A stretch of 64,000 nucleotides of DNA, taken from Microgenomates group bacterium. GTDB lineage: Bacteria; Patescibacteriota; Microgenomatia; UBA1400; MFAQ01. Numbering within the stretch: position 1 is the stretch's first letter; the number at the start of each line of letters is the position of its first letter. The notes beneath the pieces were generated by a model. That model saw only the letters and a program-made list of their open reading frames with translations. It ran no database searches and had not been told where the DNA came from. The stretch is taken from the NCBI GenBank assembly GCA_049303575.1, contig JBAQNH010000002.1, positions 572,541-636,540 of the forward strand, given 5' to 3'. Of this stretch, positions 4,177 through 31,277 are shown piece by piece. Position numbers and translations under genes: made by a program.

Positions 4177-4203
4177 ACCCGATCACCCGATCGGGTTTTT
4201 TTT
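4177..4203 (+). terminator. Rho-independent terminator (ACCCGATC-acc-GATCGGGT followed by T8)
   Basis: Perfect 8-bp stem and T-run seen directly after the 3834..4169 ORF. Confidence 0.7.
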
Positions 4204-4220
4204 CGGGTAAAATATAGACT

Positions 4221-6269: not shown

Positions 6270-6902
6270 TTAGCGGAATTTACAAGCCGTAACAACTCTA
6301 CCACCGATAGCGTCTCTGGAAGATGAAGTATCAATTTTTCTATCACCGATCGCTAGATCATCTGGATCAAAATTATTATTTTCCAGAAACTCCGCCAACA
6401 CTTTCATTGCTTTCTTACCATAGAACTGACTTTCCCTAGTACGATTATCCAAGAGAATAAATAACTGTGTCCCTTTTTTGCAAAATCTTTCAATATCGCT
6501 CAGTAAACCTTCCTCAACAATGCTCTGTGGGTTTGGCGCCACCATCATTATTAAATCGACCTTTACATCCGGTAGTTCATCAGTATAGCCAGGTACAATT
6601 ACTCTTTTTGTATCCTCGTCAATCCTTAAGGAACCTTTTCGAAAATCAATATTATTTGCGTTGATTGCCCGATCTACTCCGATCCAAAGATCACCCTTTC
6701 TTTGACTAACTGATAAATTAGTTCTCTCTCCTCCCGGACCAACATCCAAAACCACAAAATTTCTACCAACAAGAAGGTTCTCCATCTTTTCTTTCTTTTC
6801 CACGGCCCTCATATTACCAAAATCAACCACTTCATAACTTAGGCTACTGCTGATTTCAGTCTTCTTTGCTTTTTCCGAATTTTCGTTATTCGTTATTTCC
6901 AT
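6270..6902 (-). CDS. Putative SAM-dependent methyltransferase-fold protein (TrmB-like pattern). Function uncertain
   Basis: VVLDVGPGGERTNLSV...LWIGVD...KVDLIMMVAPNP resembles motif I / motif II / post-II of class I methyltransferases, closest to the tRNA m7G46 methyltransferase layout. Not a confident family call. Confidence 0.4.
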   Translation of the reverse strand: MEITNNENSEKAKKTEISSSLSYEVVDFGNMRAVEKKEKMENLLVGRNFVVLDVGPGGERTNLSVSQRKGDLWIGVDRAINANNIDFRKGSLRIDEDTKRVIVPGYTDELPDVKVDLIMMVAPNPQSIVEEGLLSDIERFCKKGTQLFILLDNRTRESQFYGKKAMKVLAEFLENNNFDPDDLAIGDRKIDTSSSRDAIGGRVVTACKFR

Positions 6903-9907: not shown

Positions 9908-11722
9908 TTGATGATGAAGAGAGTCTCTGTTCTAACACAACTAATTCTCTTTATCGTCGCTTCTCTCATTTTTTCCCCCAAAGCCCTGGCCATCGTCAAG
10001 TTTAGTACCGATTTTCAAAGTTATTATCGTGTTGATCCCAGTGGAAATACCCACGTTTCTTTCATCATCAATCAAAAAAATAACCTTTCGGTTGTTTATG
10101 CTACGGACTTTGGACTCAACATCAACGAAACCAAAGTCTCCAATATAAAGGTCACCGATGAGGGAACTTACATCATTCCCGACGTCGTCAAAACCCTAAA
10201 CCAAACAACTATTTCTTTCCCCTTTGCCAAAAAAGTCGTGGGCAAAGACAAAGTTCATTCATTCATCATCGAGTACGACACCACTGACATTGCCACTAAA
10301 GTTGGCAACACCTGGGAAATTAACATCCCTCGTCTGGAAACTGATGAGAATATCTCCGATCGAACTGTCGTCCTTGCCGTCCCTGACAACTTTCCTGTTC
10401 CTGCATACATCGATCCCAAACCCGACACAGTTAATAAAAATGTCTATTACTTCAACGGCAGTAACCTTGGAAACAAAACTATCAGTGCTGTTTTTGGACA
10501 GACACAATTTTATAAAGGGAACATTTCCTATCACCTAGTTAATGAATCAAAATCCAAAATTAACACCGAAATAGCTCTGCCTCCTGACACCGCCTATCAA
10601 ACTGTTTATTACGAAAAGCTTGACCCCATGCCCTTGACCGTAATTTCCGATGAAGACGGTAATTATCTCGCAAGATATTCTCTCGAGCCAAATTCAAACA
10701 TCGAAATAAAGTTAGCTCTATATATCAAACTCAACTTTACTCCCAAGGCTACCACCCAAACACTTTCAGATAAATTTCTTCTTTCCAACTCAACTTGGAA
10801 CTTTGATAATGGTGTTTTTACTACCCCAGAGATACAAAATTTAACCACCCCAAAAGCAATTTTTGACTTTGTTGTCGACAAGATGAAGTACGACTACGAA
10901 AAAATAAATCGTCAAAAATCTCAAAAAACTCCGGCGGCCGAATCATTTATCAATAGCCAAAGTGCCATCTGCACCGATTTTGCTAATGTTTTTGTCAGCC
11001 TAGCGCGAAAGGTCGGTATTCCGGCACGAGAGCTTGAAGGTTTCGCCATTTCCGACAATCCCAATCTTAAGCCTTTATCTCTAACCCAAGATGTTCTTCA
11101 CGCCTGGCCGGAGTACTACAACCAAGCCACCAAAACTTGGGTTCAAATAGATCCCACCTGGTCAAACACCACCAGGGGAATAGATTACTTTAACAAACTG
11201 GACTTCAACCATATTGTTTTCGCCATCCATGGAGTCAGTCCCGACTATCCGATTCCTGCTGGAGGATATAAATATAAACAGGAAAAAACCAAAGACATTG
11301 CTATTGATCCCGTTCAGTCTCTAACCTTCCCCGAACCAAGCTTTACAATTGCCAACTCAACTCAAAAGGGAGCTGAACTAATTTTTGAAATCACAAACAA
11401 CTCCGGCGTCTCCTACACGGGGAACACCATTGTCGAACGCAACGAAGCTATGGCCGAAACAGAGCAAGAAATCACTGTCCCTCCTTTTGGCACAACCCAG
11501 TTAAAACTTAAGCTAACAAAACAGCCATTCATCGGTCAAATTAAAACAAAAGCTATAATCTACATCAATGGAAACCGTTTTGAACAGCCAATCACCATAC
11601 AGCCAGCGATACCTCAGGTTGGATTTTTCTCCCTCATCGGAGTCTTTTTGGGACTCATTGCCTTCCTTGCCAGGCGTTTACATCTTCGAAGACACAAACA
11701 AAAAACCGTTATATATCGGTAA
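9908..11722 (+). CDS. Secreted/membrane-anchored transglutaminase-like cysteine protease superfamily protein
   Basis: N-terminal signal peptide. Cys-His-Asp core CTDFANVFVSLARKVGIPAR...HAWPEYY...WVQIDPTW. C-terminal hydrophobic anchor (FFSLIGVFLGLIAFLA). The 3' end overlaps uvrC in another frame. Confidence 0.7.
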   Translation: MMMKRVSVLTQLILFIVASLIFSPKALAIVKFSTDFQSYYRVDPSGNTHVSFIINQKNNLSVVYATDFGLNINETKVSNIKVTDEGTYIIPDVVKTLNQTTISFPFAKKVVGKDKVHSFIIEYDTTDIATKVGNTWEINIPRLETDENISDRTVVLAVPDNFPVPAYIDPKPDTVNKNVYYFNGSNLGNKTISAVFGQTQFYKGNISYHLVNESKSKINTEIALPPDTAYQTVYYEKLDPMPLTVISDEDGNYLARYSLEPNSNIEIKLALYIKLNFTPKATTQTLSDKFLLSNSTWNFDNGVFTTPEIQNLTTPKAIFDFVVDKMKYDYEKINRQKSQKTPAAESFINSQSAICTDFANVFVSLARKVGIPARELEGFAISDNPNLKPLSLTQDVLHAWPEYYNQATKTWVQIDPTWSNTTRGIDYFNKLDFNHIVFAIHGVSPDYPIPAGGYKYKQEKTKDIAIDPVQSLTFPEPSFTIANSTQKGAELIFEITNNSGVSYTGNTIVERNEAMAETEQEITVPPFGTTQLKLKLTKQPFIGQIKTKAIIYINGNRFEQPITIQPAIPQVGFFSLIGVFLGLIAFLARRLHLRRHKQKTVIYR

Positions 11723-12914
11723 GTCGATAAGCGTCAAAACACGGATCAAGCAACACTATGAAGGCTTTCAAAGCGGCACGACTTCAGCGGCAAACTTCAT
11801 TCCCAAAACCCATTATCTATATTTTAAAATCGTCAGCAACGATCTTGAAGCCGTTATTACCGAGGCCAACTTCATCAAAACATATCAGCCCCGTTATAAC
11901 GCCATCACCAAAGACGGTAAATCTAATATCTACATCATCTTCACCAATGAACCGGACACCAAAATTAAAATCATTCACGCTACTGACATCCAAAGTTTGG
12001 AGCTAGATGACTACAAAAAACAAGTCTTTGGTCCTTACACTTCCGGCAGAGTCGCCGAAACCTTAGTTAAACTGAGCCGACGTATTTTCGGCTACTGCAA
12101 CGCCCCCTTTAACTCTCAAGGAAGGGCTTGTTTTAATTACCATCTCCATCAGTGCCCCGGTCCTTGCCAGTTTCTCATTACTCCCAAACAATACCACCGC
12201 CATCTCGGACAAATCAAAAAATTTCTCTCTGGTCAATTTGTCCAATTAAATAAAAGTTTAAATCGCCAAATAATTGTGGCCATTAAAAAACAAAACTTTG
12301 AGTTGGCCAATGATCTGAAAAATAAAATCATGAGCCTTGACCAGGCGCTGAAAAACCAAAATTCCAGCCTTCTTTTGAAACTTTCCGATGCCACCGATCA
12401 GGTTCAACATTTGATTGTTAGTACCCTAAAACATCCGTTACTTTCGAAACCACCCGTAAGAATTGAGTGCTACGACTTGGCACATCTCCAAGGCGACAAC
12501 TATGTTGGTTCCATGTCGGTATTTATCAATGGAACTTCAGAACCTTCACTCTACCGCCACTTTAATATCAAGGGAGAAAAAAGATCAGATCCCCATGCTA
12601 TGAAAGAAATTATTTTTCGTCGTTTTAATCATCCGGAGTGGGGGAGACCGGACCTTTTGGTTCTTGATGGTGGAGTACCCCAACTCTCCATTGTCTCTTC
12701 AGTAATACCTCCAAATATTCCCACAATCGCCTTAGCCAAAAAGAGAGAGACTATTTATTTTTACGACAATAATTACGACAATAATAAAGTCACTTCTCTA
12801 AATCTGAATCTCGAAGATCCCGTCCTCAATCTCCTAAGGAATATTCGTGATGAGGCACATCGTTTTGCCACCACATTCCACATCAAAAAACGCCAAGAGT
12901 CGCTCCTGGCGTAA
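11568..12914 (+). CDS. uvrC: Excinuclease ABC subunit C, short form lacking the C-terminal (HhH)2 domain
   Basis: GIY-YIG module (PGVYIFEDTNKKPLYIGKSISVKTRIKQHY), UvrBC-interaction region, and EndoV-like domain with RDEAHRFA. The protein ends about 15 aa after that. The start is ambiguous: ATG 11568, or TTG 11619 which would give the E. coli-like spacing before PGVY. Confidence 0.85.
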   Translation: METVLNSQSPYSQRYLRLDFSPSSESFWDSLPSLPGVYIFEDTNKKPLYIGKSISVKTRIKQHYEGFQSGTTSAANFIPKTHYLYFKIVSNDLEAVITEANFIKTYQPRYNAITKDGKSNIYIIFTNEPDTKIKIIHATDIQSLELDDYKKQVFGPYTSGRVAETLVKLSRRIFGYCNAPFNSQGRACFNYHLHQCPGPCQFLITPKQYHRHLGQIKKFLSGQFVQLNKSLNRQIIVAIKKQNFELANDLKNKIMSLDQALKNQNSSLLLKLSDATDQVQHLIVSTLKHPLLSKPPVRIECYDLAHLQGDNYVGSMSVFINGTSEPSLYRHFNIKGEKRSDPHAMKEIIFRRFNHPEWGRPDLLVLDGGVPQLSIVSSVIPPNIPTIALAKKRETIYFYDNNYDNNKVTSLNLNLEDPVLNLLRNIRDEAHRFATTFHIKKRQESLLA

Positions 12915-12974
12915 TACTTAAGTTTGTCGTGAAGTAATCGACAAAATTTGGGCAAGCTCTTATATACTGGTATT

Positions 12975-13388
12975 ATGAAAGCCTTTTTAAGGGCAATTTT
13001 AATCAACCTTCTCGTCGTCTATCTGGTGGATGCTGTTTATCCAGGATTCTCGATACTTCATGATGCCAAAACACTCATTACTGCCGCCGTTATTTGGCTC
13101 CTGTTAAACAAGATCGTGAAGCCGATTATCAAGCTCCTCTTTCTTCCGATTAATCTCATTACCCTCAACCTATTTTCCTGGGTTGTCAGTCTCATTACCC
13201 TCTTTTTACTACCCTTAATTGTCAGCGGGGTCAAAATTTCCCCTTATGATTTTCCGGGGTTTAGTTACCAGGGTTTTAGCATCCCCGCATTTCACCTCAA
13301 TTTGTTCCTCTCATTTCTCGTTGCCTCCAGTTTTTTGAATTTATTTCACAACACAATCGTCTGGATTATCAAGAAAGACTCAGATTAG
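12975..13388 (+). CDS. Phage_holin_4_2 / DUF360 family membrane protein
   Basis: LINLLVVYLVDAVYPGFSI...ITLNLFSWVVSLITLFLLPLIVSG and four TM segments match the PF04020 pattern. ORF track starts at 12948; the internal Met at 12975 is chosen. Confidence 0.55.
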   Translation: MKAFLRAILINLLVVYLVDAVYPGFSILHDAKTLITAAVIWLLLNKIVKPIIKLLFLPINLITLNLFSWVVSLITLFLLPLIVSGVKISPYDFPGFSYQGFSIPAFHLNLFLSFLVASSFLNLFHNTIVWIIKKDSD

Positions 13389-13412
13389 AGACGCTAGCGT
13401 TATAATTGACCC

Positions 13413-13634
13413 ATGAAACTATCACTCATCGTTCAAATTCTCCTTTCGCTGGTCCTCATTGTCTTAGTTACTCTTCAATCAAAAGAGACCTCGCTCGGTT
13501 CTGGTTTCTCCTCGGTCACCCAGAGTGGCCTTCACACTAAACGTGGACCTGAAAAAATGATTTACTTGGCGACAATTATCGTCGCAATCGTTTTTGTAAT
13601 ATTTTCTTTCCTTAATATTGCTATCTGGAAATGA
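13413..13634 (+). CDS. secG: Preprotein translocase subunit SecG
   Basis: 73 aa, two TM segments, central LQSKETSLGSGFSS...GLHTKRGPEKM loop typical of SecG. Confidence 0.7.
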   Translation: MKLSLIVQILLSLVLIVLVTLQSKETSLGSGFSSVTQSGLHTKRGPEKMIYLATIIVAIVFVIFSFLNIAIWK

Positions 13635-14968
13635 TTAAGACCATAAGAGAGAGAGTTTGGTTCATCAAAGGCTTTCTCCAAAAATACAGTAAACAGATCG
13701 TTATTAGTGTCATTATCACGATTGTTTTTTCTCTTCTCGCCAACATACTCACCAAAAACACCTCCAGTAGGAGATCAGAAATTAAAATCGGCATCGTCGG
13801 TCAGTTCGGTGCCGGTCAGCTTCCTTCATATATTATCGATTACTTGAATGCCGGGTTAGTCTCCATCGACGAAAATCTTCAACCTGTCCCTGGACTTGCC
13901 GAAAAATGGGACATCGAAGACGGAGGTAATACCTACACCTTTTATTTAAAACCGGATCTCGAATGGTACGGAGGTGCAAAAGTTAAAGCCTCGGACATCA
14001 AATTTTCCATTCCCAACATTATTGTCGAAACTCAAGACCCCAACATTATCAAGTTCCGAATTCCTACTAAATTTGCACCCTTCCTCTCACTTTTAAACAT
14101 CCCGCTTCTAAATTCAAAAGGGAGCATCATTGGAAACTACGATATTCGTTTGAAACAAAAAAGTTCGGGGATAATTACCCAGATCATTCTCGAATCAAAC
14201 TCCCAAAAAATAGTTTTTAATGTTTTTTCTACTCCCAAACAGGCAATCACCGCCTTCAAATTAGGTCAGTTGAACTTAATACTAGGGCTACCTTCGGAAT
14301 ACTCAAGTGATCTAACCTCCTACGCCAACCTTGAGGAAAAGACTGATTTTAATCGTGTTGTAATGTTGGTTTTTAATCAAACAGATCCAAATCTAAAAGA
14401 CAAAAATATCCGACAGGGGATTGCTTACGCTCTAAACGACAAGTCCTTTGGACAGGCCGAAGCCCTTACCACCATTAATCCAAACTCTTGGGCCTTTAGT
14501 CCCCTCGTAAAAACCTATGAATACAACATAGGGAGAACAAAAGAGCTCATCACTACTCCCGTCGTCCTGGAACTCGCCACAACACCAGAACTGCTTCCGG
14601 TCGCCGAAGTTATTAAATCACGACTAGACTCGGAACTAATAACCATAAATACCAAAGTCGTAACCTCCACCCCTGATCAATTTCAACTATTACTCACTAC
14701 TTACAATATTCCCATCGATCCTGATCAATATCGAGACTGGCACTCAACCCAAATTACCAATATCGGTAAAGGAGCCGATGAAAAAATCGATAAGCTTCTG
14801 GAAGACGGCCGTATCAACTTAGACCAAAAAGAGAGAAAAAGAATCTATATTGAATTCCAAAAAACCTTTTCGGAAGAACTACCCGCTCTGGTTCTTTACC
14901 ACCCAACCGTCATCGACGTCGCCAGAAACAAAGCAAACTTTGGAATCATAAGTAGCGGCGGTTTATAA
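13631..14968 (+). CDS. Extracellular solute-binding protein, family 5 (oligopeptide/nickel-type SBP), N-terminally membrane-anchored
   Basis: LVSIDENLQPVPGLAEKWDIEDGGNTYTFYLKPDLEWYGGAKVKASDIKFSI is the SBP_bac_5 signature. N-terminal TM helix. Confidence 0.7.
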   Translation: MIKTIRERVWFIKGFLQKYSKQIVISVIITIVFSLLANILTKNTSSRRSEIKIGIVGQFGAGQLPSYIIDYLNAGLVSIDENLQPVPGLAEKWDIEDGGNTYTFYLKPDLEWYGGAKVKASDIKFSIPNIIVETQDPNIIKFRIPTKFAPFLSLLNIPLLNSKGSIIGNYDIRLKQKSSGIITQIILESNSQKIVFNVFSTPKQAITAFKLGQLNLILGLPSEYSSDLTSYANLEEKTDFNRVVMLVFNQTDPNLKDKNIRQGIAYALNDKSFGQAEALTTINPNSWAFSPLVKTYEYNIGRTKELITTPVVLELATTPELLPVAEVIKSRLDSELITINTKVVTSTPDQFQLLLTTYNIPIDPDQYRDWHSTQITNIGKGADEKIDKLLEDGRINLDQKERKRIYIEFQKTFSEELPALVLYHPTVIDVARNKANFGIISSGGL

Positions 14969-14973
14969 GTTAG

Positions 14974-15047
14974 TGGACCCTGAGGGATTCGAACCTTCGA
15001 CCTCCTCGATGTAAACGAGGCGCTCTAACCAACTGAGCTAAGAGTCC
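14974..15047 (-). tRNA. tRNA-Val (anticodon TAC)
   Basis: Reverse complement folds as GGACTCT/AGGGTCC acceptor, D-loop AGTTGGTTA, anticodon loop TTTACAT, T-loop TTCGAAT. No encoded CCA. Confidence 0.85.
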
Positions 15048-15063
15048 GACATTAGAGATATTG

Positions 15064-15147
15064 TGCGCGGGAGAGGACTTGAACCTCCACGCCTTTTAGG
15101 GGCACTAGCACCTCAAGCTAGCCTGGCTACCATTACAGCACCCGCGC
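15064..15147 (-). tRNA. tRNA-Leu (anticodon GAG), long variable arm
   Basis: Acceptor GCGCGGG/CCCGCGC, anticodon stem CTAGC/GCTAG with loop TTGAGGT, T-loop TTCAAGT, extended variable arm. Confidence 0.8.
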
Positions 15148-15256
15148 ATAAAACTCATCTGCTTAAAATTTCACAAATTTTATCTCTTTTTCTAGATAAA
15201 CAGACGACATCGCTATTATAATACAGCTTCCTGATTAAAACCAACGATCTAGGTAC

Positions 15257-20982: not shown

Positions 20983-21066
20983 GGTAATTGTAAGTATAAA
21001 ACAATCTAAATAAGAAAAGTGAACTAGATGATAAGTGTCAAAAGATGACAGAGTAAAGCATTAGTG

Positions 21067-21138
21067 AGCGGGTGAGGGGAGTCGGACCCCTTTTATCAGG
21101 TTGGAAACCTGGAGTAATAACCGTTATACGACACCCGC
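21067..21138 (-). tRNA. tRNA-like element resembling tRNA-Gly (anticodon TCC) with a non-canonical T-loop. Possible pseudo-tRNA or island attachment remnant
   Basis: Reverse complement has a perfect 7-bp acceptor GCGGGTG/CACCCGC, a D-loop with GG, an anticodon loop TTTCCAA (U33, A37), and T-stem AGGGG/CCCCT. The T-loop is TCCGACT (C instead of T at position 55), and there is one mismatch each in the D- and anticodon stems. Confidence 0.45.
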
Positions 21139-21169: not shown

Positions 21170-21844
21170 TTATCCAGCTACAGCATCAACCCACCCAAGT
21201 ATACGTCTATGGAGTGATACTCCAAATTTTGTGTCACCATTTGCCAAAACACGCAATTGTACTGTACCGTGTGGCAATTTGTGTTTACTATGTTTCTCTT
21301 TTCTAATATCAATCTGTGTTTTTCCAAATTGTTTTATTGGAATTCCGGAAACACTTGACCAATATTCCATATCTTTGTCAATGTTGTTATCAGGATACGA
21401 GTGTAAAGCTAAAGACAGATTGTTCATGGTCAAACCAATTACCTCGACAAACCATTTGACTGCAATCTTAATTACTCTCGGATCAGAATTAGTAATTCTC
21501 ACAGACTCAATCATTTTTGTACCCTCACCTAGGTACAATCCTATTCCAAATAGCCACAAGTCTCTCGAAGAGATAACACCAATTTCCTTAATTGCAGATT
21601 TATGAATCTCTTTTATACTATCCAACTTTTTTTGATGCCTATTACTAGCGGACAAATTAGTTCCATTGGCGATTCGTTCTAAAGTAATCTTGTTAGGAGT
21701 GAAGGGAATCATTTTCAACCAATCGCTTAGTGTACTTCTTGGTAATTCAAGATCCTTGTGAATGTAAGAATAGGAAAATCCCTCTTTTCTCAATGCTATC
21801 GCTTTTTCTCTAAGAATTTTTCTATCCTGGACAGCCATATACAT
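21170..21844 (-). CDS. HTH-domain protein with a LAGLIDADG-like motif (possible free-standing homing-endonuclease-like or DNA-binding protein)
   Basis: N-terminal HTH-like segment (RKILREKAIALRKEGFSYSYIHKDLELPRSTLSDWL). Central WLFGIGLYLGEGTK resembles a LAGLIDADG-type motif. Family call is tentative. Confidence 0.4.
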   Translation of the reverse strand: MYMAVQDRKILREKAIALRKEGFSYSYIHKDLELPRSTLSDWLKMIPFTPNKITLERIANGTNLSASNRHQKKLDSIKEIHKSAIKEIGVISSRDLWLFGIGLYLGEGTKMIESVRITNSDPRVIKIAVKWFVEVIGLTMNNLSLALHSYPDNNIDKDMEYWSSVSGIPIKQFGKTQIDIRKEKHSKHKLPHGTVQLRVLANGDTKFGVSLHRRILGWVDAVAG

Positions 21845-22092
21845 CTAAGTATACCAAATAACGTGTACGTAATAGAGAATTACAACAATTATTAAAAACC
21901 TCCAGTTGTCGAGAGGAAGCGAACAATTACGAACCTCTCATGGAAGCTATTTTATCATGCTGGAAACCGGTTAATTTAGACTTCAAAAAAATACTCCTCA
22001 CAAAGGACAATATGACTACAGGCACTAATGAGGGTGGATTCTCTTATCTATATTGATTAGGGTGGTCATTCTTGAACCATTTAGAAAGTGGT

Positions 22093-22653
22093 CTACAGCC
22101 ATCTAGCCACTCCTCCATGATGCGAACAAGTACCTCTTCGACTCTGACTAAACGAATATGTCCCATCACCACACTTCGCTGATGCTCCCACAGGCACACC
22201 TCCGTCATTCGTATAGCTCGGTGACTGTACGGTCTGTCCAGCGGTGTTTACGTAAGTCTTATCATTTACAGTGACACTTTCTTTTGTCGGCGTTGGTGTC
22301 TTAGTGGGGGTTGGAGTAAGCGAGGGCGTAGTTGTACTTGTGGGTTCGAGGGTAATTGCAGATGTGGGTGACGTTGGTGAGATATTCAAACTACCCGACC
22401 CAACAGAATATTCTTCAGAAACAGGAGTGATCGTCGGAGAAATATTGGTAACCGAAGTTCCTTTGACATCTTTACCAGTCTCAGGAGCCGTAACTCCAAT
22501 CAACACGAACAAGGCGACTATAATTCCAATCATTACTAGTCCAAACTTCTTTCTACTTACACCGTCCTTCCTGACAATCCAAACAGGTTTAATCAGCCCT
22601 ATAGGTAGAGCAATTAAACTCAAGAAAAACAATAATCCAAATACAATAGCCAC
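22093..22653 (-). CDS. Membrane-anchored protein with Pro/Thr-rich linker and C-terminal DUF3761 domain
   Basis: N-terminal TM helices, PT-rich low-complexity region, C-terminal CGDGTYSFSQSRRGTCSHHGGV (DUF3761 signature). Confidence 0.6.
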   Translation of the reverse strand: MAIVFGLLFFLSLIALPIGLIKPVWIVRKDGVSRKKFGLVMIGIIVALFVLIGVTAPETGKDVKGTSVTNISPTITPVSEEYSVGSGSLNISPTSPTSAITLEPTSTTTPSLTPTPTKTPTPTKESVTVNDKTYVNTAGQTVQSPSYTNDGGVPVGASAKCGDGTYSFSQSRRGTCSHHGGVARWL

Positions 22654-22721: not shown

Positions 22722-23351
22722 CTAATGATTGGTTGTCTCCACAACCGGTCTTTGTCTCTTCTTCCCCGATAACTTTTTTACCAATACTCCTTTAGAAATA
22801 TCGAAATCTTTCATAACATCTCTTAAGGAGATTATAAGCGTACCCAGTTGTTCAATAGATTCAAAAGCAATTTCTTCAACAGGCCTTCCCCAATTTCCGC
22901 GTTTGGGATGCACCCACTGGTTCCCAAGATCGTATAAGTCGTTAAAAAGTTTTGCGCTGTTTTTATCAATAATCTTGTAACCCTTTTTATGGTTATAAAG
23001 AAAATCATTTACGATTTTTCTGAAATCTAAACTTTCGGCAAGCTGCTCAATGATCAATCTGTCCCCATCAATCTCCACCTCTTCATAAAAAATTTCACTT
23101 GCTAAATATTCAGCGATAGATCGACAAACCATAATCGTGGAAGCGAAGTAACCTAGAGAAAAAAGATCCTTTGCTTGATCAAAAAGGTTTACACTTGGAG
23201 TGTCGTACAAAATACCCCCAACCTTAATCCTTTTTATTCTTTTTCCAATTAAAGAAAGGTTTGGTTCGAATTTAGCCAATAAATTACTTGCCACAACATC
23301 GTCAGGTTCACTATTAGCAAACTGTGTATCTAAAGCCAAAAAGACATCCAT
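22722..23351 (-). CDS. Hypothetical protein (209 aa) immediately upstream of, and co-oriented with, the KAP NTPase
   Basis: 62-nt gap to the KAP gene on the same strand. No recognisable domain. Confidence 0.5.
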   Translation of the reverse strand: MDVFLALDTQFANSEPDDVVASNLLAKFEPNLSLIGKRIKRIKVGGILYDTPSVNLFDQAKDLFSLGYFASTIMVCRSIAEYLASEIFYEEVEIDGDRLIIEQLAESLDFRKIVNDFLYNHKKGYKIIDKNSAKLFNDLYDLGNQWVHPKRGNWGRPVEEIAFESIEQLGTLIISLRDVMKDFDISKGVLVKKLSGKKRQRPVVETTNH

Positions 23352-23412
23352 AAGGTATTTTATCCTACCGATGTGTTTACATTAGATATAAAAAATAACA
23401 CGCCTTTTGACA

Positions 23413-26019
23413 TTAAGAGGTTAAAGGAACATCCGTAGTTGAAATTTCCCATGAGGCAAAAATTAAATCTTTCTGCTCATCCAATTCAGGTTTTTTGAGA
23501 TCACTTACATTTTCCAGAAGGATTTTTCCATCCTCAATACTAAAATCTCTCCATAAATCATTTTCTTTGACTAAGAGGGAACTCGCTGCGATTCTCTTCA
23601 CGATGCTAATATTCTTATTAAGAAAAATTTCCACAAGCTTCTTAAACAATTCCATTTTCCCTCCTTTGTTCAAAAATGTTTTTACAGTCTCAGAAGTGAT
23701 TTGGTCAAAATTATCTTCATTGTCCAAAGAGTTATTTAAAAGGGATTTAAGTTTCTCGTTATCACCTTCTTCCATACTCAGATTACTTCTCTGAGAAATT
23801 ATATTTACAATTTCCGAAATACTCAGATTTGCTTCAAAAAGACTTGTCTTGCATGGCCCAAATAAACCATAATCTTCTAAAAACGACTTGTTTTGTGAAA
23901 CCCAATCAATATCCCTTTTTATCTTTACAAGACTAGGTATAGAGTCTAGGTATAGTCTAGCTAGGTTACCATCTCTCAAACCTTTATCATTCAACTGAGA
24001 AATATCCGATTTGTATTCCTCTAAAGCTTCAATTCCTTTTATACTTTGCTTAATAACATCGTTATTTCCATTTATACTTAGACAATTTTCCAAAGCAACT
24101 AAATCACGCGGTGTTTCAGAAAAAGCAATCGTTGCAATGTCCTGCAAACTATCTTTAATATCTATTTTAATATTGTCAGGAAGTTGCTTTATCATCTCCC
24201 ACAGATGCTCTCTATAGGTAGGTTCGTTACGGTAAAAATCAGATAAACCTTCTCTACTTTTTGCAAATAACGAATTCACGTATTGCTGTCTAGATAATAA
24301 CCTAAACTCGTCAGGAAACATGCCGACAATATCTAATTTAGATTTCCAATCTCCCAATCTCTCTGACCATTCTTGAGACTCTGCAGCTAATTTTAGACTC
24401 TCCAAAATAATATTTTGTCGCTCGTTTGGATCCTCAGTATTATCAAATTCTTTTAGTGCGGTATCAGCATATTCTTTATTTTTGTCAGGAGTTATTCCTC
24501 CTTTTGTCATCGTCTCTCCAAGTTTGTTAACTAGTTGACCTTGTTTAAGGTATTCTAAAAATTTAGAGGGGTCCGGTCCTAAAGAGCTGGGAAGACCAGT
24601 AGCGGCAGAAAAATAAAAATAATTAGCTGGTTCGTATATCGTAGTTCCTTCATCGTTTGTAAACTTAGGAGATTGCTTTAATAAATTTGCATATTTGACC
24701 ATTGCATTATCTTCACCAAGTAGTTTTATAACACTAATACCTATGGCTAAATCATCCCTCTTTGGATCCATTCTTAACATTTTTTCATGACCTACAATAG
24801 CCTCTGGATGTAAAACCAATTTTTCATACACGGGGAAAAAGAATTCTTCGATAGTCAATATCTTTGCAATAAGGTCAATGTGAAGTAGCATGGAGGAAAG
24901 TTCTTTTGCTACATTTTCCTCTTGGTCTAGAATCAATGTATTTTTCTGAGTGATAAGACTTTCTACATTAAAACGAACCTTGTCTATAAATCGAATTACA
25001 TTCCTTGGGTTTCTGGCAAATAAGTCATCGTTCATAAGTAGAAGCTTAAAATTTTCTTTAACTTCGTCTGAAGCAAAAACCAGTTTTGATTTTTTTAATT
25101 CGTCATCAACAAACGATCCGAATTGATTAGAAGTTGGATACGGCATTCTCCAATAAACATTAAAAAGTTTTTTTATATACTCACGGCCTTTTTCAAGTTT
25201 TTGTTCTGGAGACATTGTTTCAAGAAGCTGTAGATCTACAACTGCGGCTTTTTCCACAACAGTATGATCGGCCGTAACAACAAATGAACATTCTGGGTGC
25301 TGAAAAAACGTACGAAATGCGTCCATGACTATCTTAATGGTAGATGGAGTACATCTATCAAGATCGTCAATGAAAACAACAATTTTTCTCTTTCCCTTTA
25401 GTAGCATATAAAATCTATCTTCAAATTCTTCTGAAGTTGTAACCTTCGCATAGCTTTTTGTCGTTGTAATTTGCTTTAGCAGAGCAGGAATTACAAATAA
25501 AGTTATTATCCACAAAGAAAGTGCTGATAGAAACGGAATAGCAAAAAGTTTAGATATAAGTTCAAAAAGTAAATTTGGTATTCCCAAACCCAAAAAAACA
25601 GCAAAAGCAACCACAAACGTTGTAAAAATAATAAGCCAAGGAATTCTCTTAAGCAACTTCACCAAAGTATCTACAAGTTCACGCCACTCAACATTCGTCT
25701 TCGAAGTATCATAATACAGGTCATCCAGATCAACCTTTGACTGTACAGATTTTTTAACTTCCTTTAAAAACGCTTTTTTAATACTTACTTCGTCTTGAGA
25801 GTATTTCCAAGGATTGAATTTAATTATCGTAAATCCATTATCGGATAAGGGAGTTTCAATTCTGTTTAAAACGTCAGTTTTACCCTCTCCCCACCTACCA
25901 GAAATTGCAAAAACCATATTATCTCTTTCCACCTTCGTTTTTTTCGATTCCTTAGAATAGTGTTTAGCAATCTCTTCCGCTATTTTATTAGCATATAGTT
26001 GGTGATTTAGCCTATCCAT
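23413..26019 (-). CDS. KAP-family P-loop NTPase with transmembrane insert
   Basis: Walker A FAISGRWGEGKTDVL. Hydrophobic helices (IPWLIIFTTFVVAFAVFLGLGIP..., FLSALSLWIITLFVIPALL) are inserted between Walker A and Walker B (KIVVFIDDLDRC). This is the defining KAP architecture. Long alpha-helical C-terminal region. Confidence 0.85.
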   Translation of the reverse strand: MDRLNHQLYANKIAEEIAKHYSKESKKTKVERDNMVFAISGRWGEGKTDVLNRIETPLSDNGFTIIKFNPWKYSQDEVSIKKAFLKEVKKSVQSKVDLDDLYYDTSKTNVEWRELVDTLVKLLKRIPWLIIFTTFVVAFAVFLGLGIPNLLFELISKLFAIPFLSALSLWIITLFVIPALLKQITTTKSYAKVTTSEEFEDRFYMLLKGKRKIVVFIDDLDRCTPSTIKIVMDAFRTFFQHPECSFVVTADHTVVEKAAVVDLQLLETMSPEQKLEKGREYIKKLFNVYWRMPYPTSNQFGSFVDDELKKSKLVFASDEVKENFKLLLMNDDLFARNPRNVIRFIDKVRFNVESLITQKNTLILDQEENVAKELSSMLLHIDLIAKILTIEEFFFPVYEKLVLHPEAIVGHEKMLRMDPKRDDLAIGISVIKLLGEDNAMVKYANLLKQSPKFTNDEGTTIYEPANYFYFSAATGLPSSLGPDPSKFLEYLKQGQLVNKLGETMTKGGITPDKNKEYADTALKEFDNTEDPNERQNIILESLKLAAESQEWSERLGDWKSKLDIVGMFPDEFRLLSRQQYVNSLFAKSREGLSDFYRNEPTYREHLWEMIKQLPDNIKIDIKDSLQDIATIAFSETPRDLVALENCLSINGNNDVIKQSIKGIEALEEYKSDISQLNDKGLRDGNLARLYLDSIPSLVKIKRDIDWVSQNKSFLEDYGLFGPCKTSLFEANLSISEIVNIISQRSNLSMEEGDNEKLKSLLNNSLDNEDNFDQITSETVKTFLNKGGKMELFKKLVEIFLNKNISIVKRIAASSLLVKENDLWRDFSIEDGKILLENVSDLKKPELDEQKDLIFASWEISTTDVPLTS

Positions 26020-26149
26020 TATGAAGATATGATAACCCCAATTTATATAACATCAACACCTTAATCATTTTTCTTACAGTTTTATGCTCAAAACAGTCAA
26101 GCTAATACAAATGTTAAACTTAATAATCTCCAAACAATAAAGTAGCCGC

Positions 26150-26572
26150 ATGACAGTCAATATAATTACAAAATATAAATCTCCAAAATTCCAATTATGG
26201 TGCAAGTATTTCTTTGACAAGAGCAATAGAACTACATACGGTAACGCCGCACAATCCACCTTAAAAGCCTACAACACCACAAACTACCATAGCGCAAGCC
26301 AAATAGGATACGAGAACTTGAGAAAACTTGATTTCCTGAAGCCAGCAATAGCAGAAAGTGAAGGGTTTGGGATTGCTGAGTTTATCAAAGTAGCCATAGC
26401 TAAAGCTCTCAAAGGAAGTTACGCTGATTGGGAAAAACTAGGTATCCAACTTGGTTACTTTGAACCGGAGAAAAAGATACCTACCGTTGCGGTCCAAAAT
26501 AATTTTGACATGTCCACACTAAGGGAAACAGTAAGAAAGGCGAGAATTGATAGGGGATTGTCCGTGGTCTAA
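26150..26572 (+). CDS. Phage terminase small subunit-like protein (Terminase_2-type HTH); no large subunit adjacent
   Basis: KFQLWCKYFFDKSNRTTYGNAAQSTLKAYNTTNYHSASQIGYENLRKLDFLKPAIAE matches the conserved TerS N-terminal pattern (F..EY....NATQAAI.AGYS...A...G..LL....V..AI). Confidence 0.5.
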   Translation: MTVNIITKYKSPKFQLWCKYFFDKSNRTTYGNAAQSTLKAYNTTNYHSASQIGYENLRKLDFLKPAIAESEGFGIAEFIKVAIAKALKGSYADWEKLGIQLGYFEPEKKIPTVAVQNNFDMSTLRETVRKARIDRGLSVV

Positions 26573-26581
26573 TTTGACTCT

Positions 26582-27202
26582 CTACTTCGATAATTTACGC
26601 CTTTCAGTCAACCACAAGACAATATAGACACAAACCGAAATGAAAAACATAACGAGGACAACAGAACGATATTTGTGAAAAAGAAGTAGCATCAAAAAGA
26701 AGAGTGCCTTCTTAGGCATAGCCTGAGACTGTGTACTGCCCCTAAAAAAGCTCGTCATCGAATCGTAGAGGAATGTATCAACAAGCAACATACCGGCCAG
26801 AAATAGACAAGCGTACCCTAACCATTCTTTGTTAGTAGTTTCTTTCTTTAATTCCCGATTTGTTTTAATCACACTTATCGACTCGAATTTATTTTGTACG
26901 TATCCTTTTATCTTCTGGTAATTAAGAATGCACCAGAGGAATGAAATAATATACAACCAGACGCCAGATTCCGTCATCACATTTTCACTTTGTTGTTTAA
27001 GGAAATTGAAAACGGATTTGATGCCTATTGAAGCTGTGCTATACAAAGCACTCGAAGAAGACGCCAGGTTCACCAGAAACGCTGATAACCAGATCACGAA
27101 TAATACTTTAATCGCTAGAGTAAGTTTCAATTTTTTTATTGCGACTATCAAACATTGAAGATTATTTGTCATATTTGTTTCGGTGATTGAAAAAATATAC
27201 AA
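26582..27202 (-). CDS. Hypothetical multi-pass membrane protein
   Basis: Several hydrophobic segments. Co-oriented with the CAP-domain gene. Confidence 0.45.
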   Translation of the reverse strand: MYIFSITETNMTNNLQCLIVAIKKLKLTLAIKVLFVIWLSAFLVNLASSSSALYSTASIGIKSVFNFLKQQSENVMTESGVWLYIISFLWCILNYQKIKGYVQNKFESISVIKTNRELKKETTNKEWLGYACLFLAGMLLVDTFLYDSMTSFFRGSTQSQAMPKKALFFLMLLLFHKYRSVVLVMFFISVCVYIVLWLTERRKLSK

Positions 27203-27380
27203 AAGAAATCACTACACAGACAACAATCCACCTCGGAAGTAAACCATCCCAATTTTCATATTCAGGAGCAAGTATAGAGAGTATCAACATCGGAACCTGG
27301 ATACCAATAATACCCAGACCAACCCCAACTCCAATGGATTTGGGGAGTATGTGAATCAATCTAGAGATTATGTTTTTCAT
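27162..27380 (-). CDS. Small hypothetical membrane protein (72 aa)
   Basis: Two hydrophobic helices. Overlaps both neighbours by short stretches in an operon-like arrangement. Confidence 0.35.
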   Translation of the reverse strand: MKNIISRLIHILPKSIGVGVGLGIIGIQVPMLILSILAPEYENWDGLLPRWIVVCVVISFVYFFNHRNKYDK

Positions 27381-28173
27381 TTAATTGACGATTAGCAAAA
27401 TGTTCTACCGAAAATACGCCACACTGACCGATTCCTACTTCGGTATATGCAGGATCAAGAATGTTGTCTCGATGTTCCTCGCTGTTCATGTACGCCGTAG
27501 CGGTTCTTTTTGTACTGTTGTTGTAATCTCTAGCGATATTTTCACCAGCATGGTAATAGTCATACCCAGCCTTCTTAATAAAATACCAAGGTTGTTTTCC
27601 ATCAGGAGAGACATGTTCAAAGTAATTGTTGTCTCTCATGTCACACGCCTTGGCCTTTGCTGACTCGTCAAGAAGCTTGTTCTCAGTTAACGGCTTTAAC
27701 CCTACTGCGACACGCTCTTTGTTGATTAACCTAACCATGTCTGTGTAAGAAGAGATCTCGATATACGCCGGATCTATCTTGGTTACTCTGTAGTAGTAAT
27801 TTGATCCATAGAAACCTCCGAATAGCCCGATGGCTAACAAAATCATGCTCTTAGAAATCTTCCCAAATATTGTTTCCCTATCTACACTCTTCACTTTTTC
27901 AGAATGTGTTCCTAGGTTTCGTTTGTCTCGCCGATTTTTGTAAATGATATTAAGATAAAAGAATAGAACCAAGAAAGAAATAATACCTATAATAACAGTC
28001 GATATTAAGATGATATTTTGAATTTCTGTGTATGACCCTTCAGAACTGGCGGAAGAAACGAGAAGAAATAATATTACTGACACAAACCACACCAAAGTAA
28101 ATATCAAGGCCAATTTTGTTTGGTTTATAGCATGTTTTGCCATTACGAAAAGTATAGCTCTACATAATACCAA
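27361..28173 (-). CDS. CAP/SCP (PR-1-like, YkwD-type) domain protein with N-terminal TM anchor
   Basis: LINKERVAVGLKPLTENKLLDESAKAKACDM...HAGENIA...MNSEEHRDNILDPAYTEVGIGQCG...VEHF is the CAP domain signature. Confidence 0.7.
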   Translation of the reverse strand: MVLCRAILFVMAKHAINQTKLALIFTLVWFVSVILFLLVSSASSEGSYTEIQNIILISTVIIGIISFLVLFFYLNIIYKNRRDKRNLGTHSEKVKSVDRETIFGKISKSMILLAIGLFGGFYGSNYYYRVTKIDPAYIEISSYTDMVRLINKERVAVGLKPLTENKLLDESAKAKACDMRDNNYFEHVSPDGKQPWYFIKKAGYDYYHAGENIARDYNNSTKRTATAYMNSEEHRDNILDPAYTEVGIGQCGVFSVEHFANRQLNEKHNL

Positions 28174-28250
28174 TCACAAGCTCATTACTGTGCCTAAAAG
28201 AGTCATATAAAGACAACTTTTCTACAGCGTTTTGCTCAAAATCGCTTTAT

Positions 28251-28475
28251 ATGTCTTTTTACTTCACCAAGCAACTTCGAGAAAACATTGGCAAGAAAAT
28301 AAGAAGAGCCAGAAAAAATAAGGGGTTAAAACAAGTTGAAGTCGCTGTCGAGGCTGGAATGAGTCCTAGCTATTACGGCAAGATCGAAAGGGGCATTGTA
28401 AATCCTTCATTGGAAAAGCTTCACAAAATCATAAAATCACTTGGTGTGAAGTCATCAGACATTCTTCCTTTTTAA
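28251..28475 (+). CDS. XRE-family helix-turn-helix transcriptional regulator
   Basis: LRENIGKKIRRARKNKGLKQVEVAVEAGMSPSYYGKIERGIVNPSLEKLHKIIKSLGV is the canonical Cro/C1-type HTH. Divergent from the CAP/membrane operon. Confidence 0.75.
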   Translation: MSFYFTKQLRENIGKKIRRARKNKGLKQVEVAVEAGMSPSYYGKIERGIVNPSLEKLHKIIKSLGVKSSDILPF

Positions 28476-28488
28476 GGGGACAATCTCG

Positions 28489-29241
28489 ATGTATAGGAAA
28501 ATCAACACTAAGAAACAAAAGGGTGTTAATCTCGTGCCTTTCACAAAAGGCGAAGAAAGTTTATTGGGTCTTCTCGAAGAAGATAAACTATTTGGAATTG
28601 TTGTATTAAATATCAGAAATAAACTTGGAATTCCGGCAAAAGGTTTTACTTCTCCGAACAAAGATCGCGAAAACATCAAGAAGATAGAAACAAAAAAACT
28701 TATTAGAGCATCCCACACTCTTTGCAGACTATATAACCTACCTGTTTACTGGGCACCAACCTTTCACATCTACATACTACTAAACAAGACAATAAAAATC
28801 GATGAGTCGTTATATTACAAACCGATCACCATACGCAAACAAAATAACAAGGTGCTCTTGGAAATAAATGAAAGGATTTCAATTAAAGAATTAGGCAGAA
28901 TCTTACAGTTAAACAGCTCCGAATATAAAGACAAAACCAAAAACCTACCACAAAGACCAACCAAAGAAATCAAAAACCTAAAAATACGCAAAAAAATCTC
29001 TCAAGTGGTTTCAATTTTTAGAGATAATCCAAAACCTCAGCCCTACAAAAAAATTGCTGACTTTTTCAATGAAATACAAATTGACCAAGAAACTACCCTA
29101 GACACCTCTGACGAGTCAGTTCTTAGAGAATATGTGTCCAGAAACGACAAAGAACTAAACAAACAAACTGATGATAAGAAACTTGATCTACTTAAACTTG
29201 TTTTGGGTATACAAGATATAGAAGAAGTCATCAAAGATTAA
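28489..29241 (+). CDS. Hypothetical protein (250 aa) downstream of the XRE regulator
   Basis: Lys-rich. No domain recognised. Confidence 0.45.
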   Translation: MYRKINTKKQKGVNLVPFTKGEESLLGLLEEDKLFGIVVLNIRNKLGIPAKGFTSPNKDRENIKKIETKKLIRASHTLCRLYNLPVYWAPTFHIYILLNKTIKIDESLYYKPITIRKQNNKVLLEINERISIKELGRILQLNSSEYKDKTKNLPQRPTKEIKNLKIRKKISQVVSIFRDNPKPQPYKKIADFFNEIQIDQETTLDTSDESVLREYVSRNDKELNKQTDDKKLDLLKLVLGIQDIEEVIKD

Positions 29242-29523
29242 GCTCGCAACAAAAAAGAGTTACTTTTCTTGTTTTTCAAGTTTTTTCCTAAGCGCAATAA
29301 GCTAAGGAAGAATGGAAAGTTCGACTAATAAATCTCAAACAAGACCAGCGACAAGCGTTGAGATAGTCGATGTGTCTTCAAATTCCCCATTGTTAGATCT
29401 TATTACCTTAATGTCATCTGTCCAAACAAATACACCCGAAGCAAAGCAGAATGAAACTACAATTAGTGACGGAAAAGGCGGCCAGATATACTTATAGCGT
29501 TTTACCAACAAATGTCCATATAA

Positions 29524-31119
29524 TTGGGTCATATGGATGATGTCGAAAAAGAGATTGATTTTACCAAGCTTAGGTATGTACTGTACGCAAGGAAATCAAC
29601 CGTCGACGAATCCAGGCAAATACGTTCGATTCCAGATCAGATTAAAGAGTGTCTCGATTTAGCTCATAGAATTGGCATCAAAATTCAGTCTAAAGACATT
29701 CTGCAAGAAACCCAATCCGCGAAGAAACCTAACCAAAGACCTATCTTTAGAAAGATGCTTAATGACATCAAGAAGGGGTTATATGATGGCATTCTTGCAT
29801 GGAATCCTGATCGTCTAGCTAGAAACATGCTCGAGGGCGGAGAGATTATTGACTTAGTTGATCAAAAAATTATCAAGGATCTCAAGTTCGTAACACATCA
29901 CTTTACTGCAGATGCAAATGGGAAAATGCTTCTGGGTATGGCTTTTGTTCTGTCAAAACAATACTCTGATGACCTATCTCAAAAGGTGACCCGCGGAGTA
30001 AGAAATAGTTTCAAAGAAGGCAAAACCCCAACTCCTAAACATGGTTACCTTAACGAAGACAGACTATACAAGCCAGATGGAAATAGTTTTAAGCTACTAC
30101 AAGAAGGCTGGATAATGAGAAGCGAGGGAGTAGGTATTCAAGAAATAGCAGACTACCTAAACGCTAACGGATACACGAAACGAGTAAAACGAAACGGAAA
30201 AGAAATCAAAATAAAGAAACAGATACTTAGCAAAATCTTTAAAGACCCATTCTATTATGGTGTCTTGGTGCAAGCCCAGAAAGAAATTGACTTACGTGAT
30301 GTGTACGACTTTGAAGCAATGGTAACTGAGGATATTTATAACAAAGTACAGCAACTTTCTTTCCGTAGAATAAAACCTAATAAACAACATCACTCGGCCT
30401 TCTATCCACTGAAGGCACTAATTCGTTGCTCATTTTGTGGAAGCAACATGTATGTATCACCATCGTCTGGAAACACAAGAAGGTATCTTAATGCCAGGTG
30501 TGACAACAAGGATTGTCCTAGAAAAAAGAGGGGAATAAGAACAATTGTTGTTTTTAACTTTATTTACGACTTTCTAGAAAAAGGGTTAAATTTTACCGAA
30601 AAAGAATACAACGAATACTATTCAAAGATGGAAAAACTCTCAGATGTAAAAAGAGAAGAGCTAAATATCGAGATACACAGACATGAAGGCTCACTTAAGC
30701 AAATTGAGTATGATCTAAAAGAAACTTCACTTAACATAGTTAAACTGCCAAAAACCTCACCAGCATGGAAAATCAACAGTCAAGAGATTAACGAGTTAGC
30801 AGATCAGGTTCAGGAGTCAAAAGAGATAATCAAAAAACTCAAACAGAGGCTAACAAACCCGGAAGAAGACAAACTAAGCCTCGAAGACTTCTTGAACCTT
30901 TCAAAAAATGCGGGTGCTGTCGTCAAATCTGCAGACGCAGTAGTAAAAGATCAAATTTGCAGAATTATCTTTACGAACTTTTTTGTTGACGAAGAAAAAG
31001 TAACGTCTTATCAACTAAAAGAGCCTTTCGCTACCCTCATAAAACAACGCGAACTATCTCTATGTCGGGGTGGTGAGACTCGAACTCACGACCCCTGCGT
31101 CCCAAACGCAGTACTCTAG
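29524..31119 (+). CDS. Large serine recombinase (resolvase-domain integrase)
   Basis: N-terminal catalytic domain (LRYVLYARKSTVDES...AWNPDRLARN), recombinase domain, and zinc-ribbon CSFCGSNMYV...ARCDNKDCP. The last 18 codons (positions 31066-31119) are antisense to tRNA-Pro. Confidence 0.85.
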   Translation: MGHMDDVEKEIDFTKLRYVLYARKSTVDESRQIRSIPDQIKECLDLAHRIGIKIQSKDILQETQSAKKPNQRPIFRKMLNDIKKGLYDGILAWNPDRLARNMLEGGEIIDLVDQKIIKDLKFVTHHFTADANGKMLLGMAFVLSKQYSDDLSQKVTRGVRNSFKEGKTPTPKHGYLNEDRLYKPDGNSFKLLQEGWIMRSEGVGIQEIADYLNANGYTKRVKRNGKEIKIKKQILSKIFKDPFYYGVLVQAQKEIDLRDVYDFEAMVTEDIYNKVQQLSFRRIKPNKQHHSAFYPLKALIRCSFCGSNMYVSPSSGNTRRYLNARCDNKDCPRKKRGIRTIVVFNFIYDFLEKGLNFTEKEYNEYYSKMEKLSDVKREELNIEIHRHEGSLKQIEYDLKETSLNIVKLPKTSPAWKINSQEINELADQVQESKEIIKKLKQRLTNPEEDKLSLEDFLNLSKNAGAVVKSADAVVKDQICRIIFTNFFVDEEKVTSYQLKEPFATLIKQRELSLCRGGETRTHDPCVPNAVL

Positions 31120-31138
31120 CCATCTGAGCTACACCCCG
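31065..31138 (-). tRNA. tRNA-Pro (anticodon TGG)
   Basis: Reverse complement CGGGGTGTAGCTCAGATGGCTAGAGT... with C1:G72, anticodon stem CTGCG/CGCAG with loop TTTGGGA, T-arm GTGAGTTCGAGTCTCAC. Confidence 0.85.
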
Positions 31139-31200
31139 ATGCCTATATTTTACCTCAAATGATGTAAAATATATAAGTTCATTCAAGAACAATTGTGTAT

Positions 31201-31277
31201 GGTGGGTGTAGCTTAGCTGGCTAAAGCGCCTCCCTGTGGAGGAGGAGATCGCGGGTTCGAATCCCGTCATCCACCCA
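31201..31277 (+). tRNA. tRNA-His (anticodon GTG) with genomically encoded G-1
   Basis: G-GTGGGTG...CATCCAC-C acceptor with the extra 5' G and C73, anticodon stem CCTCC/GGAGG with loop CTGTGGA, T-loop TTCGAAT. Confidence 0.8.

Follow-up and report, generated by a model that had tools for sequence, protein, structure and literature searches.

The window studied here, a stretch of 64,000 nucleotides (nt) from a Microgenomates group bacterium (assembly GCA_049303575.1, contig JBAQNH010000002.1, positions 572,541 to 636,540 of the forward strand), carries a small integrative element with three consecutive genes on its minus strand. In the order of transcription, they encode a KAP NTPase of 868 amino acids (aa), a 209-aa protein, and a DUF3761 protein (Table 1). 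An earlier note on this DNA, made from the letters alone, proposed that the KAP gene and the 209-aa gene, its small partner, form a two-gene anti-phage module. Both open reading frames (ORFs) lie where that note had placed them and are co-oriented, as it said. Because both genes are on the minus strand, however, the 209-aa gene is located downstream of the KAP gene and not upstream, and the gap between them counts 61 nt (23352-23412) instead of 62 nt. A further 68 nt separate the 209-aa gene from the DUF3761 gene, which the note had described as coding for a membrane protein and whose product has an N-terminal hydrophobic segment. Proteins identical to the 868-aa and the 209-aa protein are on record from a 704-kb contig of a Microgenomates group bacterium, in agreement with a chromosomal origin of the window. 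We consider it likely that the KAP gene and the 209-aa gene are two independent single-gene defense-type cargo genes, stacked on one small integrative element in a genome of the candidate phyla radiation (CPR).

The 868-aa protein is a KAP-family P-loop NTPase. It matches the Pfam profile KAP_NTPase (PF07693) with 107.7 bits, far above the cut-off of 20 (E 8.6e-31), over residues 11-348 and profile positions 6-286 of 293. Walker A reads G41RWGEGKT48, while Walker B, V214VFIDD219, is directly followed by L-D-R-C (V214VFIDDLDRC223). The NTPase domain occupies approximately residues 1-350, and the stretch that separates Walker A (41-48) from Walker B (214-219) carries a hydrophobic hairpin of two helices. 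The domain is followed by a C-terminal region of about 500 aa (residues ~350-860), which is all alpha-helical in the AlphaFold2 (AF2) model. Two hydrophobic segments are apparent between the Walker motifs, with Kyte-Doolittle values of at least 1.6 at averaging-window centres 131-147 and 163-176, and they coincide with long helices at 112-144 and 162-182 in the AF2 model (mean predicted local distance difference test score, pLDDT, 83.1). Such a pair of hydrophobic peaks was found in 20 of 21 scored family members, the 868-aa protein itself included in the scoring; in the latter, the two segments fuse into one peak by the peak criterion used. Sequence and model thus both predict transmembrane helices inserted in the NTPase domain. 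The architecture claimed in the earlier note (Walker A, transmembrane insert, Walker B) is borne out by these data, and so is the assignment to the KAP profile that it had proposed to check.

In 24 aligned relatives the Walker residues W43-G-E-G-K47, D218, D219, and D221-R222-C223 are invariant, together with many positions in the C-terminal region. A loop in this region, S-x-x-T-G-L-P-S-x-x-G-P-D (residues ~471-483), is also invariant across the 24 relatives, although it is modeled with pLDDT below 50 at 473-480; it may serve a function or mediate an interaction. Foldseek comparison of the AF2 model with the PDB revealed no enzymatic effector domain in the C-terminal region and gave matches of low TM-score only. 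The best match was RdrA of RADAR (E 1.5e-4, TM-score ~0.26), and the others were AAA+ proteins and ARM/HEAT repeats. The PADLOC models QatA, PifA, and PDC-S20 match the KAP protein over the NTPase domain only.

Three assignments to named families were rejected. For QatA, the protein scores 83.4 bits with the NCBIfam equivalog, whose cut-off is 600, and no Qat partner genes are present: neither QueC nor TatD nor any other Qat-partner family was found among the neighboring ORFs scanned with Pfam. Membership in the Tmn/YobI family was dismissed, as YobI is absent from the Pfam matches at E<=0.1 while KAP_NTPase is strong. In case of PifA, the PADLOC match is confined to the N-terminal NTPase part.

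The 209-aa protein gave no match in Pfam, PADLOC, NCBIfam, or PHROGs, and a profile search against PDB sequences returned nothing significant. Since the four libraries of hidden Markov models (HMMs) and the PDB profile search were empty, a fold search was needed. We collected 38 homologs of 156-242 aa, 31 of which served to build a confident AF2 model (pLDDT 87.8, predicted TM-score 0.84) that shows the alpha-helical core fold of HEPN proteins. The relationship to DUF4145 (PF13643) emerges from the relatives: the 209-aa protein itself has no match, while 12 of 31 close relatives score below threshold (best 19.6 vs 23.1 bits) with the whole profile covered. Only 128 clusters were recovered when 1.84 billion representatives were searched with the partner profile. 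From these, 67 members of the wider family were aligned, 39 of which match DUF4145 (best E 9.5e-8); a few match other HEPN families. Judging from these matches in close and wider relatives and from the model, the 209-aa protein is a divergent DUF4145-like HEPN protein. A HEPN fold was among those that the earlier note had suggested to seek in the partner, and this suggestion was therefore well placed, in contrast to its statement that the partner has no recognizable motif: besides the fold, there are conserved G-N-x-W-x-H-P and C-R-S-x-A-E motifs. No nucleotidyltransferase gene, as expected for a HEPN-MNT pairing, was found next to the HEPN gene in the window or among the called genes of the nine other partner contexts described below, and a scan of viral contigs revealed no relatives of the partner family.

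The putative active-site residues of this family follow a strict rule. RAZR, a characterized DUF4145 defense ribonuclease (RNase), needs an arginine and a histidine of its DUF4145 domain (PMC13017515). The 209-aa protein carries G143-N-Q-W-V-H148, with glycine in the arginine position, and so lacks the Rx4-6H catalytic motif. Among the 67 aligned members, however, all 67 have an arginine at exactly one of the positions 77 and 143; no member carries it twice or lacks it altogether at these sites. In 46 members the arginine is R143, within the canonical R-N-x-Y-x-H, and position 77, in the context C-G-x-x-x-E-R, is occupied by another residue: a small one (G, A, V, S, C) in 45 members and glutamine in one. 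The remaining 21, the subfamily of the 209-aa protein, have R77 in C-R-S-x-A-E and G, A, or C at position 143 in G-N-x-W-x-H-P. Across both groups H148 (66/67), N144 (59/67), and an acidic residue at position 81 (67/67) are kept. From this alignment pattern we infer that the catalytic arginine was relocated from position 143 to position 77 rather than lost, and the 209-aa HEPN protein is most likely an RNase, as a prediction from these residues and the fold.

The question whether the two genes belong together was addressed by running the HMMs of both families on every fetched locus, 86 in all. Both HMMs match only in the window. The KAP relatives come from 30 distinct loci including the window, recovered by genome and metagenome scans and two exact-protein look-ups. 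The other 29 loci all carry full-length KAP relatives, and the partner HMM found no match in any of them, even at E<=10. Conversely, in none of the nine other distinct partner contexts (L001-L003, L004, L005-L008, L009, L010, L011, L082/L083, L084/L085, and L086) was a KAP gene found within ~5-6 kb on each side of the partner. The closest KAP relative (locus L080, 49% identity) has an unrelated 185-aa gene downstream, and the closest partner relative (L009, 86% identity) has an unrelated 461-aa ORF in the KAP position. Neither of these is a cryptic counterpart: hhalign probabilities are 0.06% for the 185-aa gene as a partner and 0.1% for the 461-aa ORF as a KAP protein. The earlier note had itself named a partner that is not conserved next to KAP homologs as the outcome which would speak against a module, and had suggested to check co-occurrence across genomes. 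As this is what we found, with adjacency confined to the window among 30 KAP loci and 10 partner contexts, the two-gene system is not supported. The adjacency reflects cargo accretion at a variable end of the element and not a conserved partnership.

Taken separately, both families reveal neighborhoods rich in restriction-modification genes. Full-length KAP relatives of ~853-890 aa, with 33-49% identity over 95-99% of their length, occur in several CPR lineages and in bins of Bacteroidota and Deltaproteobacteria. At approximately 7-8 distinct loci they are located directly 3' of hsdM and 5' of hsdS, with hsdR and radC upstream. The 93 nearest neighbors at the 29 KAP loci include N6_Mtase (9), HsdM_N (6), Methylase_S (5), ResIII (5), EcoEI_R_C (4), and Peptidase_S24 (4) by Pfam. 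Clustering yields restriction-modification subunits, LexA-like repressors, RadC, and recombinases as the only recurrent neighbors. In addition, a CAP12/Pycsar-type TIR protein and Fic are found beside the KAP gene of L080, and Dcm-Vsr and DUF6339 beside that of L081.

In two operons (L011 and L082/L083), partner relatives occupy the place between hsdM and hsdS; others are located directly 3' of a 1044-aa type IIG enzyme (L084/L085), near LexA and N6_Mtase (L005-L008), and next to AAA_21 and DUF4276 genes together with a type III restriction-modification system (L009). Among the partner contexts available for this comparison, no conserved neighbor of the partner gene, in particular no antitoxin-like one, was detected. 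The slot between hsdM and hsdS of type I operons thus holds KAP relatives (L016, L034-L036, L039, L041, L043, L049, L054, and loosely L040, several with radC and hsdR upstream) and, separately, HEPN relatives. It appears to be a cargo site for single-gene defense candidates.

The remaining features of the element and its surroundings are listed in Table 1.

Table 1. Features of the integrative element and its edges, ordered by position in the window.
Feature	Coordinates	Strand	Size and remarks
ORF between tRNA-Gly and island	21170-21844	-	224 aa; N-terminal helix-turn-helix (HTH); PADLOC HEase E 0.006, weak
Non-coding stretch	21907-22078	-	172 bp; 73% identity to L009 (blastn); holds terminator-like hairpin 21916-21899
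DUF3761 gene	22093-22653	-	186 aa; PF12587 85.2 bits; N-terminal hydrophobic segment, Pro/Thr-rich linker
HEPN-fold partner gene	22722-23351	-	209 aa; stand-alone, divergent DUF4145-like family
KAP NTPase gene	23413-26019	-	868 aa; candidate single-gene defense protein
Promoter-like site TTGATG-16-TATCAT	26029-26056	-	Consensus scan; just 5' of KAP start codon; weak evidence
Small-terminase-like ORF, weak	26150-26572	+	140 aa; PHROG 51 (terminase small subunit) E 0.0047
Membrane ORF without family	26582-27202	-	206 aa; multiple hydrophobic segments
CAP/SCP-domain membrane protein	27361-28173	-	270 aa; PF00188 58.6 bits; N-terminal hydrophobic segments
HTH_3 (Cro/CI-type) regulator	28251-28475	+	74 aa; PF01381 60.9 bits; similar to HTH genes of L009 and L004
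Large serine recombinase	29524-31119	+	531 aa; Resolvase, Recombinase, and Zn_ribbon_recom domains; right end of element
tRNA-Pro (TGG)	31064-31138	-	ARAGORN; Rfam tRNA 64.4 bits; overlapped by recombinase 3' end

Recombinase domains at one end, a GC content of 0.34-0.39 compared to 0.41-0.44 in the flanks, and a related element in L009 characterize the region as an integrative element, in accordance with the earlier note, which had recognized a tRNA-flanked recombinase island. The element spans about 9 kb, roughly 21.9-31.1 kb of the window, with an approximate left boundary. The last 56 nt of the recombinase gene overlap tRNA-Pro on the opposite strand, and tRNA-Pro is the probable integration target. 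Around the island, neither att-type direct repeats nor any remnant of tRNA-Pro could be found beyond short repeats of chance level, and an Rfam scan of 19.5-33 kb found tRNAs only. The flanks hold housekeeping genes (BipA/TypA, NUDIX, flavodoxin, NrtR) and many tRNA genes. Fifteen tRNA genes are spread over ~23 kb (14973-37941) on both strands, singly or in small groups and interleaved with protein genes; tRNA-Gly (21066-21138) and tRNA-Pro/tRNA-His (31064-31276) bound the island. The 224-aa ORF at the island edge, whose weak PADLOC match is to a homing-endonuclease-like model, contains a LxxGxxLGEG-type segment and may be a LAGLIDADG-like gene. An overlap between the 3' end of a large serine recombinase gene and an opposite-strand tRNA gene is found in three unrelated loci, the window, L080 (recombinase 13444-15150; tRNA-His 15094-15169, minus strand), and L037 (recombinase 2744-4303, minus strand; tRNA-Thr 2730-2805, plus strand). 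In these lineages, recombinases of the serine rather than the tyrosine type thus seem to integrate into tRNA genes recurrently.

The L009 element allows for a direct comparison. The recombinases of L009 and the window share 73% identity as proteins and 72% as DNA, and the two partner genes share 82.7% as DNA (blastn). Similarity ends 14 nt upstream of the partner ATG; compared with L009, the place upstream of the HEPN gene is thus taken by other cargo, namely the KAP gene. The 172-bp non-coding stretch directly follows the partner in L009 and is displaced beyond the DUF3761 gene in the window, so that the latter is an insertion downstream of the partner relative to L009. In other loci, the DUF3761 gene is not linked to KAP or HEPN genes. 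As a backbone, the elements share the serine recombinase, a small ORF, the HTH_3 regulator, and the small-terminase-like gene. The 140-aa ORF of the window shares 28% identity over 111 aa with the gene of L004 that carries Terminase_2, and L004 adds to this a Toprim primase with DnaG zinc ribbon. In its layout, the element resembles phage satellites of the phage-inducible chromosomal island (PICI) kind, here in CPR bacteria and with defense cargo at one variable end. This layout is seen at 26150-29497 of the window and at 1-6627 of L004. In L009, AAA_21/AAA_15 and DUF4276 genes, which we take to be a PARIS-like pair, and, directly beside, another serine recombinase accompanied by a type III-like restriction-modification system (ResIII/RE_endonuc and N6_N4_Mtase) were found at 4719-6442 and 10488-14952. 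This arrangement is a tandem array of defense-carrying elements.

A simple consensus scan revealed no terminator-like or promoter-like site between the KAP, 209-aa, and DUF3761 genes. Counts of such sites in the region are near the shuffled expectation and not above chance, and operon structure is therefore only suggested. The three genes may be co-transcribed in the window, in which case the 172-bp stretch likely marks the 3' end of their common transcript, is close to the end of the element, or both.

If both genes act in defense, they would do so in different ways. The anti-phage system envisaged in the earlier note is plausible for the KAP protein by itself, by analogy with single-gene KAPs validated against phage (PMC13552941) and in view of its relatives beside restriction-modification and defense genes; as a two-gene system it is not supported. 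The KAP protein would be anchored in the membrane by the two-helix hairpin within its P-loop domain, and its ~500-aa alpha-helical C-terminal region would recognize a phage component, in analogy to KAP and transmembrane P-loop proteins of validated defense function. Walker A and B are intact and invariant in the family, and binding or hydrolysis of nucleoside triphosphate (NTP) might then drive a membrane-proximal response that halts phage replication. The HEPN protein would act as a stand-alone RNase with a composite active site of H148, N144, and the arginine at position 77 on a neighboring helix.

Several observations weigh against reading the two genes as independent defense cargo. The relocation of the arginine rests on an alignment pattern that perhaps goes back to one or few evolutionary events, and the 209-aa protein itself is below every Pfam threshold and without the canonical HEPN arginine. 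The KAP C-terminal region has no effector domain, its top PDB match being the distant one to RdrA. The close spacing and shared orientation of the two genes, with no terminator- or promoter-like site between them in the simple scan, leave room for co-transcription and for some functional interplay in this genome. Furthermore, the locus sample consists of what the pattern-based scans recovered, and the partner contexts L001-L003 and L010 are not obviously defense islands.

Three other explanations have to be weighed against independent cargo. An obligate two-gene system, with the KAP protein as sensor or regulator and the HEPN protein as its dedicated effector, would be consistent with two co-oriented genes 61 nt apart without a terminator-like site between them, and would combine a KAP protein that has no recognizable effector domain with a neighbor of nuclease-type fold. 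We regard it as very improbable, given that the adjacency occurs in the window only, that the closest relatives of either gene lack the other, that KAP relatives keep their ~870-aa architecture without any partner, and that partner relatives stand alone in chromosomal contexts. A looser relation is conceivable, though still unlikely: the two would be separate systems, with NTP consumption or the membrane response of the KAP protein on infection potentiating the HEPN RNase, as Tmn does for systems sensitive to ATP, PrrC among them. Synergy of this kind, between a P-loop NTPase of the transmembrane type and PrrC, Gabija, and Septu, has been published (PMC13001434; bioRxiv 10.1101/2022.08.21.504612), and it would fit with possible co-transcription and with the independent occupation of the type I restriction-modification operon slot by both families. 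However, the KAP-HEPN pairing does not recur, the precedent belongs to the YobI and not to the KAP family, and the HEPN protein, unlike PrrC, has no ATP-binding domain to sense nucleotide depletion.

The third explanation does without phage defense. Either the genes serve the element itself, for instance the HEPN protein as an addiction or stabilization toxin and the KAP protein as a membrane-associated exclusion or maintenance NTPase, a role that has been argued for PifA, or the HEPN protein is an inactive RNA- or ligand-binding module. Both genes are indeed located on an integrative element, some partner contexts are not defense islands, phage exclusion is perhaps not the primary role of PifA (PMC13552941), and the canonical HEPN arginine is absent. 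Yet both families are strongly enriched beside restriction-modification and defense genes in many unrelated genomes and not just on mobile elements, no antitoxin-like conserved neighbor of the HEPN gene was found, and the strict one-arginine rule together with near-invariant H148, N144, and E81 points to a retained active site. We thus give little credence to this explanation. Independent defense cargo remains our preferred reading. It might be extended by a combination of two of the ideas above, namely that the HEPN subfamily comprises active RNases with the arginine moved to the neighboring helix (R77, G143) and that this RNase has been newly wired into an operon with a KAP protein that potentiates it on infection. 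This combination is rather doubtful; if true, it would provide a non-canonical HEPN active-site geometry and an emerging layered defense unit instead of an ancestral module.

With regard to annotation, our results avoid a false new two-gene defense system, and list KAP and HEPN as separate single-gene candidates. Uncultured CPR lineages join the range of single-gene KAP NTPase defense candidates, and the full-length KAP subfamily and the HEPN family each recur as inserts in type I restriction-modification operons.

Single-gene KAP defenses and a DUF4145-HEPN defense (RAZR) have already been published, and the KAP and HEPN genes of the window are new candidates of these known kinds. Single-gene KAP NTPases with uncharacterized C-terminal regions protect against phage, with Walker B and the C-terminal region being required (PMC13552941). 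EF_KAP and three metagenomic KAPs of that study share with the KAP protein of the window a KAP domain with an inner transmembrane helix, a long C-terminal region without known domain, and the encoding by one gene within mobile DNA that is associated with a recombinase; in sequence, the likeness is known from the shared Pfam domain alone. The EF_KAP study used a small recombinase as bait, whereas the recombinase of the window is of the large serine type and the host is a CPR bacterium. PifA of the F plasmid and QatA of QatABCD share the KAP NTPase domain (PADLOC PifA 62 bits, QatA 72 bits), and PifA is reported to be without transmembrane helices (PMC13001434), whereas they are predicted in the KAP protein of the window. 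In the case of the transmembrane P-loop NTPase Tmn, phage RIIB is sensed by an arm of helical repeats, and ATP turnover is coupled to a response at the membrane (PMC13001434). With two transmembrane helices in its P-loop domain, a cytosolic alpha-helical repeat arm, and a role in single-gene defense, Tmn is a plausible functional analog of the KAP protein, although it belongs to a different NTPase family (YobI).

The classical position of prrC is between hsdM and hsdS of a type I restriction-modification operon. KAP and HEPN relatives are likewise inserted there, and their likeness to PrrC/RloC-type genes is one of position; unlike such loci, the window itself has no type I restriction-modification system.

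On the side of the HEPN protein, RAZR is a DUF4145-type HEPN RNase that cleaves RNA and acts by abortive infection (PMC13017515), and DUF4145 HEPN genes are known from restriction-modification operons (PMC3710099). The 209-aa protein resembles the DUF4145-type HEPN proteins, including RAZR / PD-T7-4, in its HEPN four-helix core, the G/R-N-x3-H signature, the association of its family with restriction-modification operons, and its small size. It differs from them by a score below the DUF4145 threshold, the lack of a zinc-finger domain, and the combination of Gly143 with R77. The either/or arginine of its family is the most distinctive detail of this locus, and with 67 members following the rule, it constitutes a testable HEPN variant.

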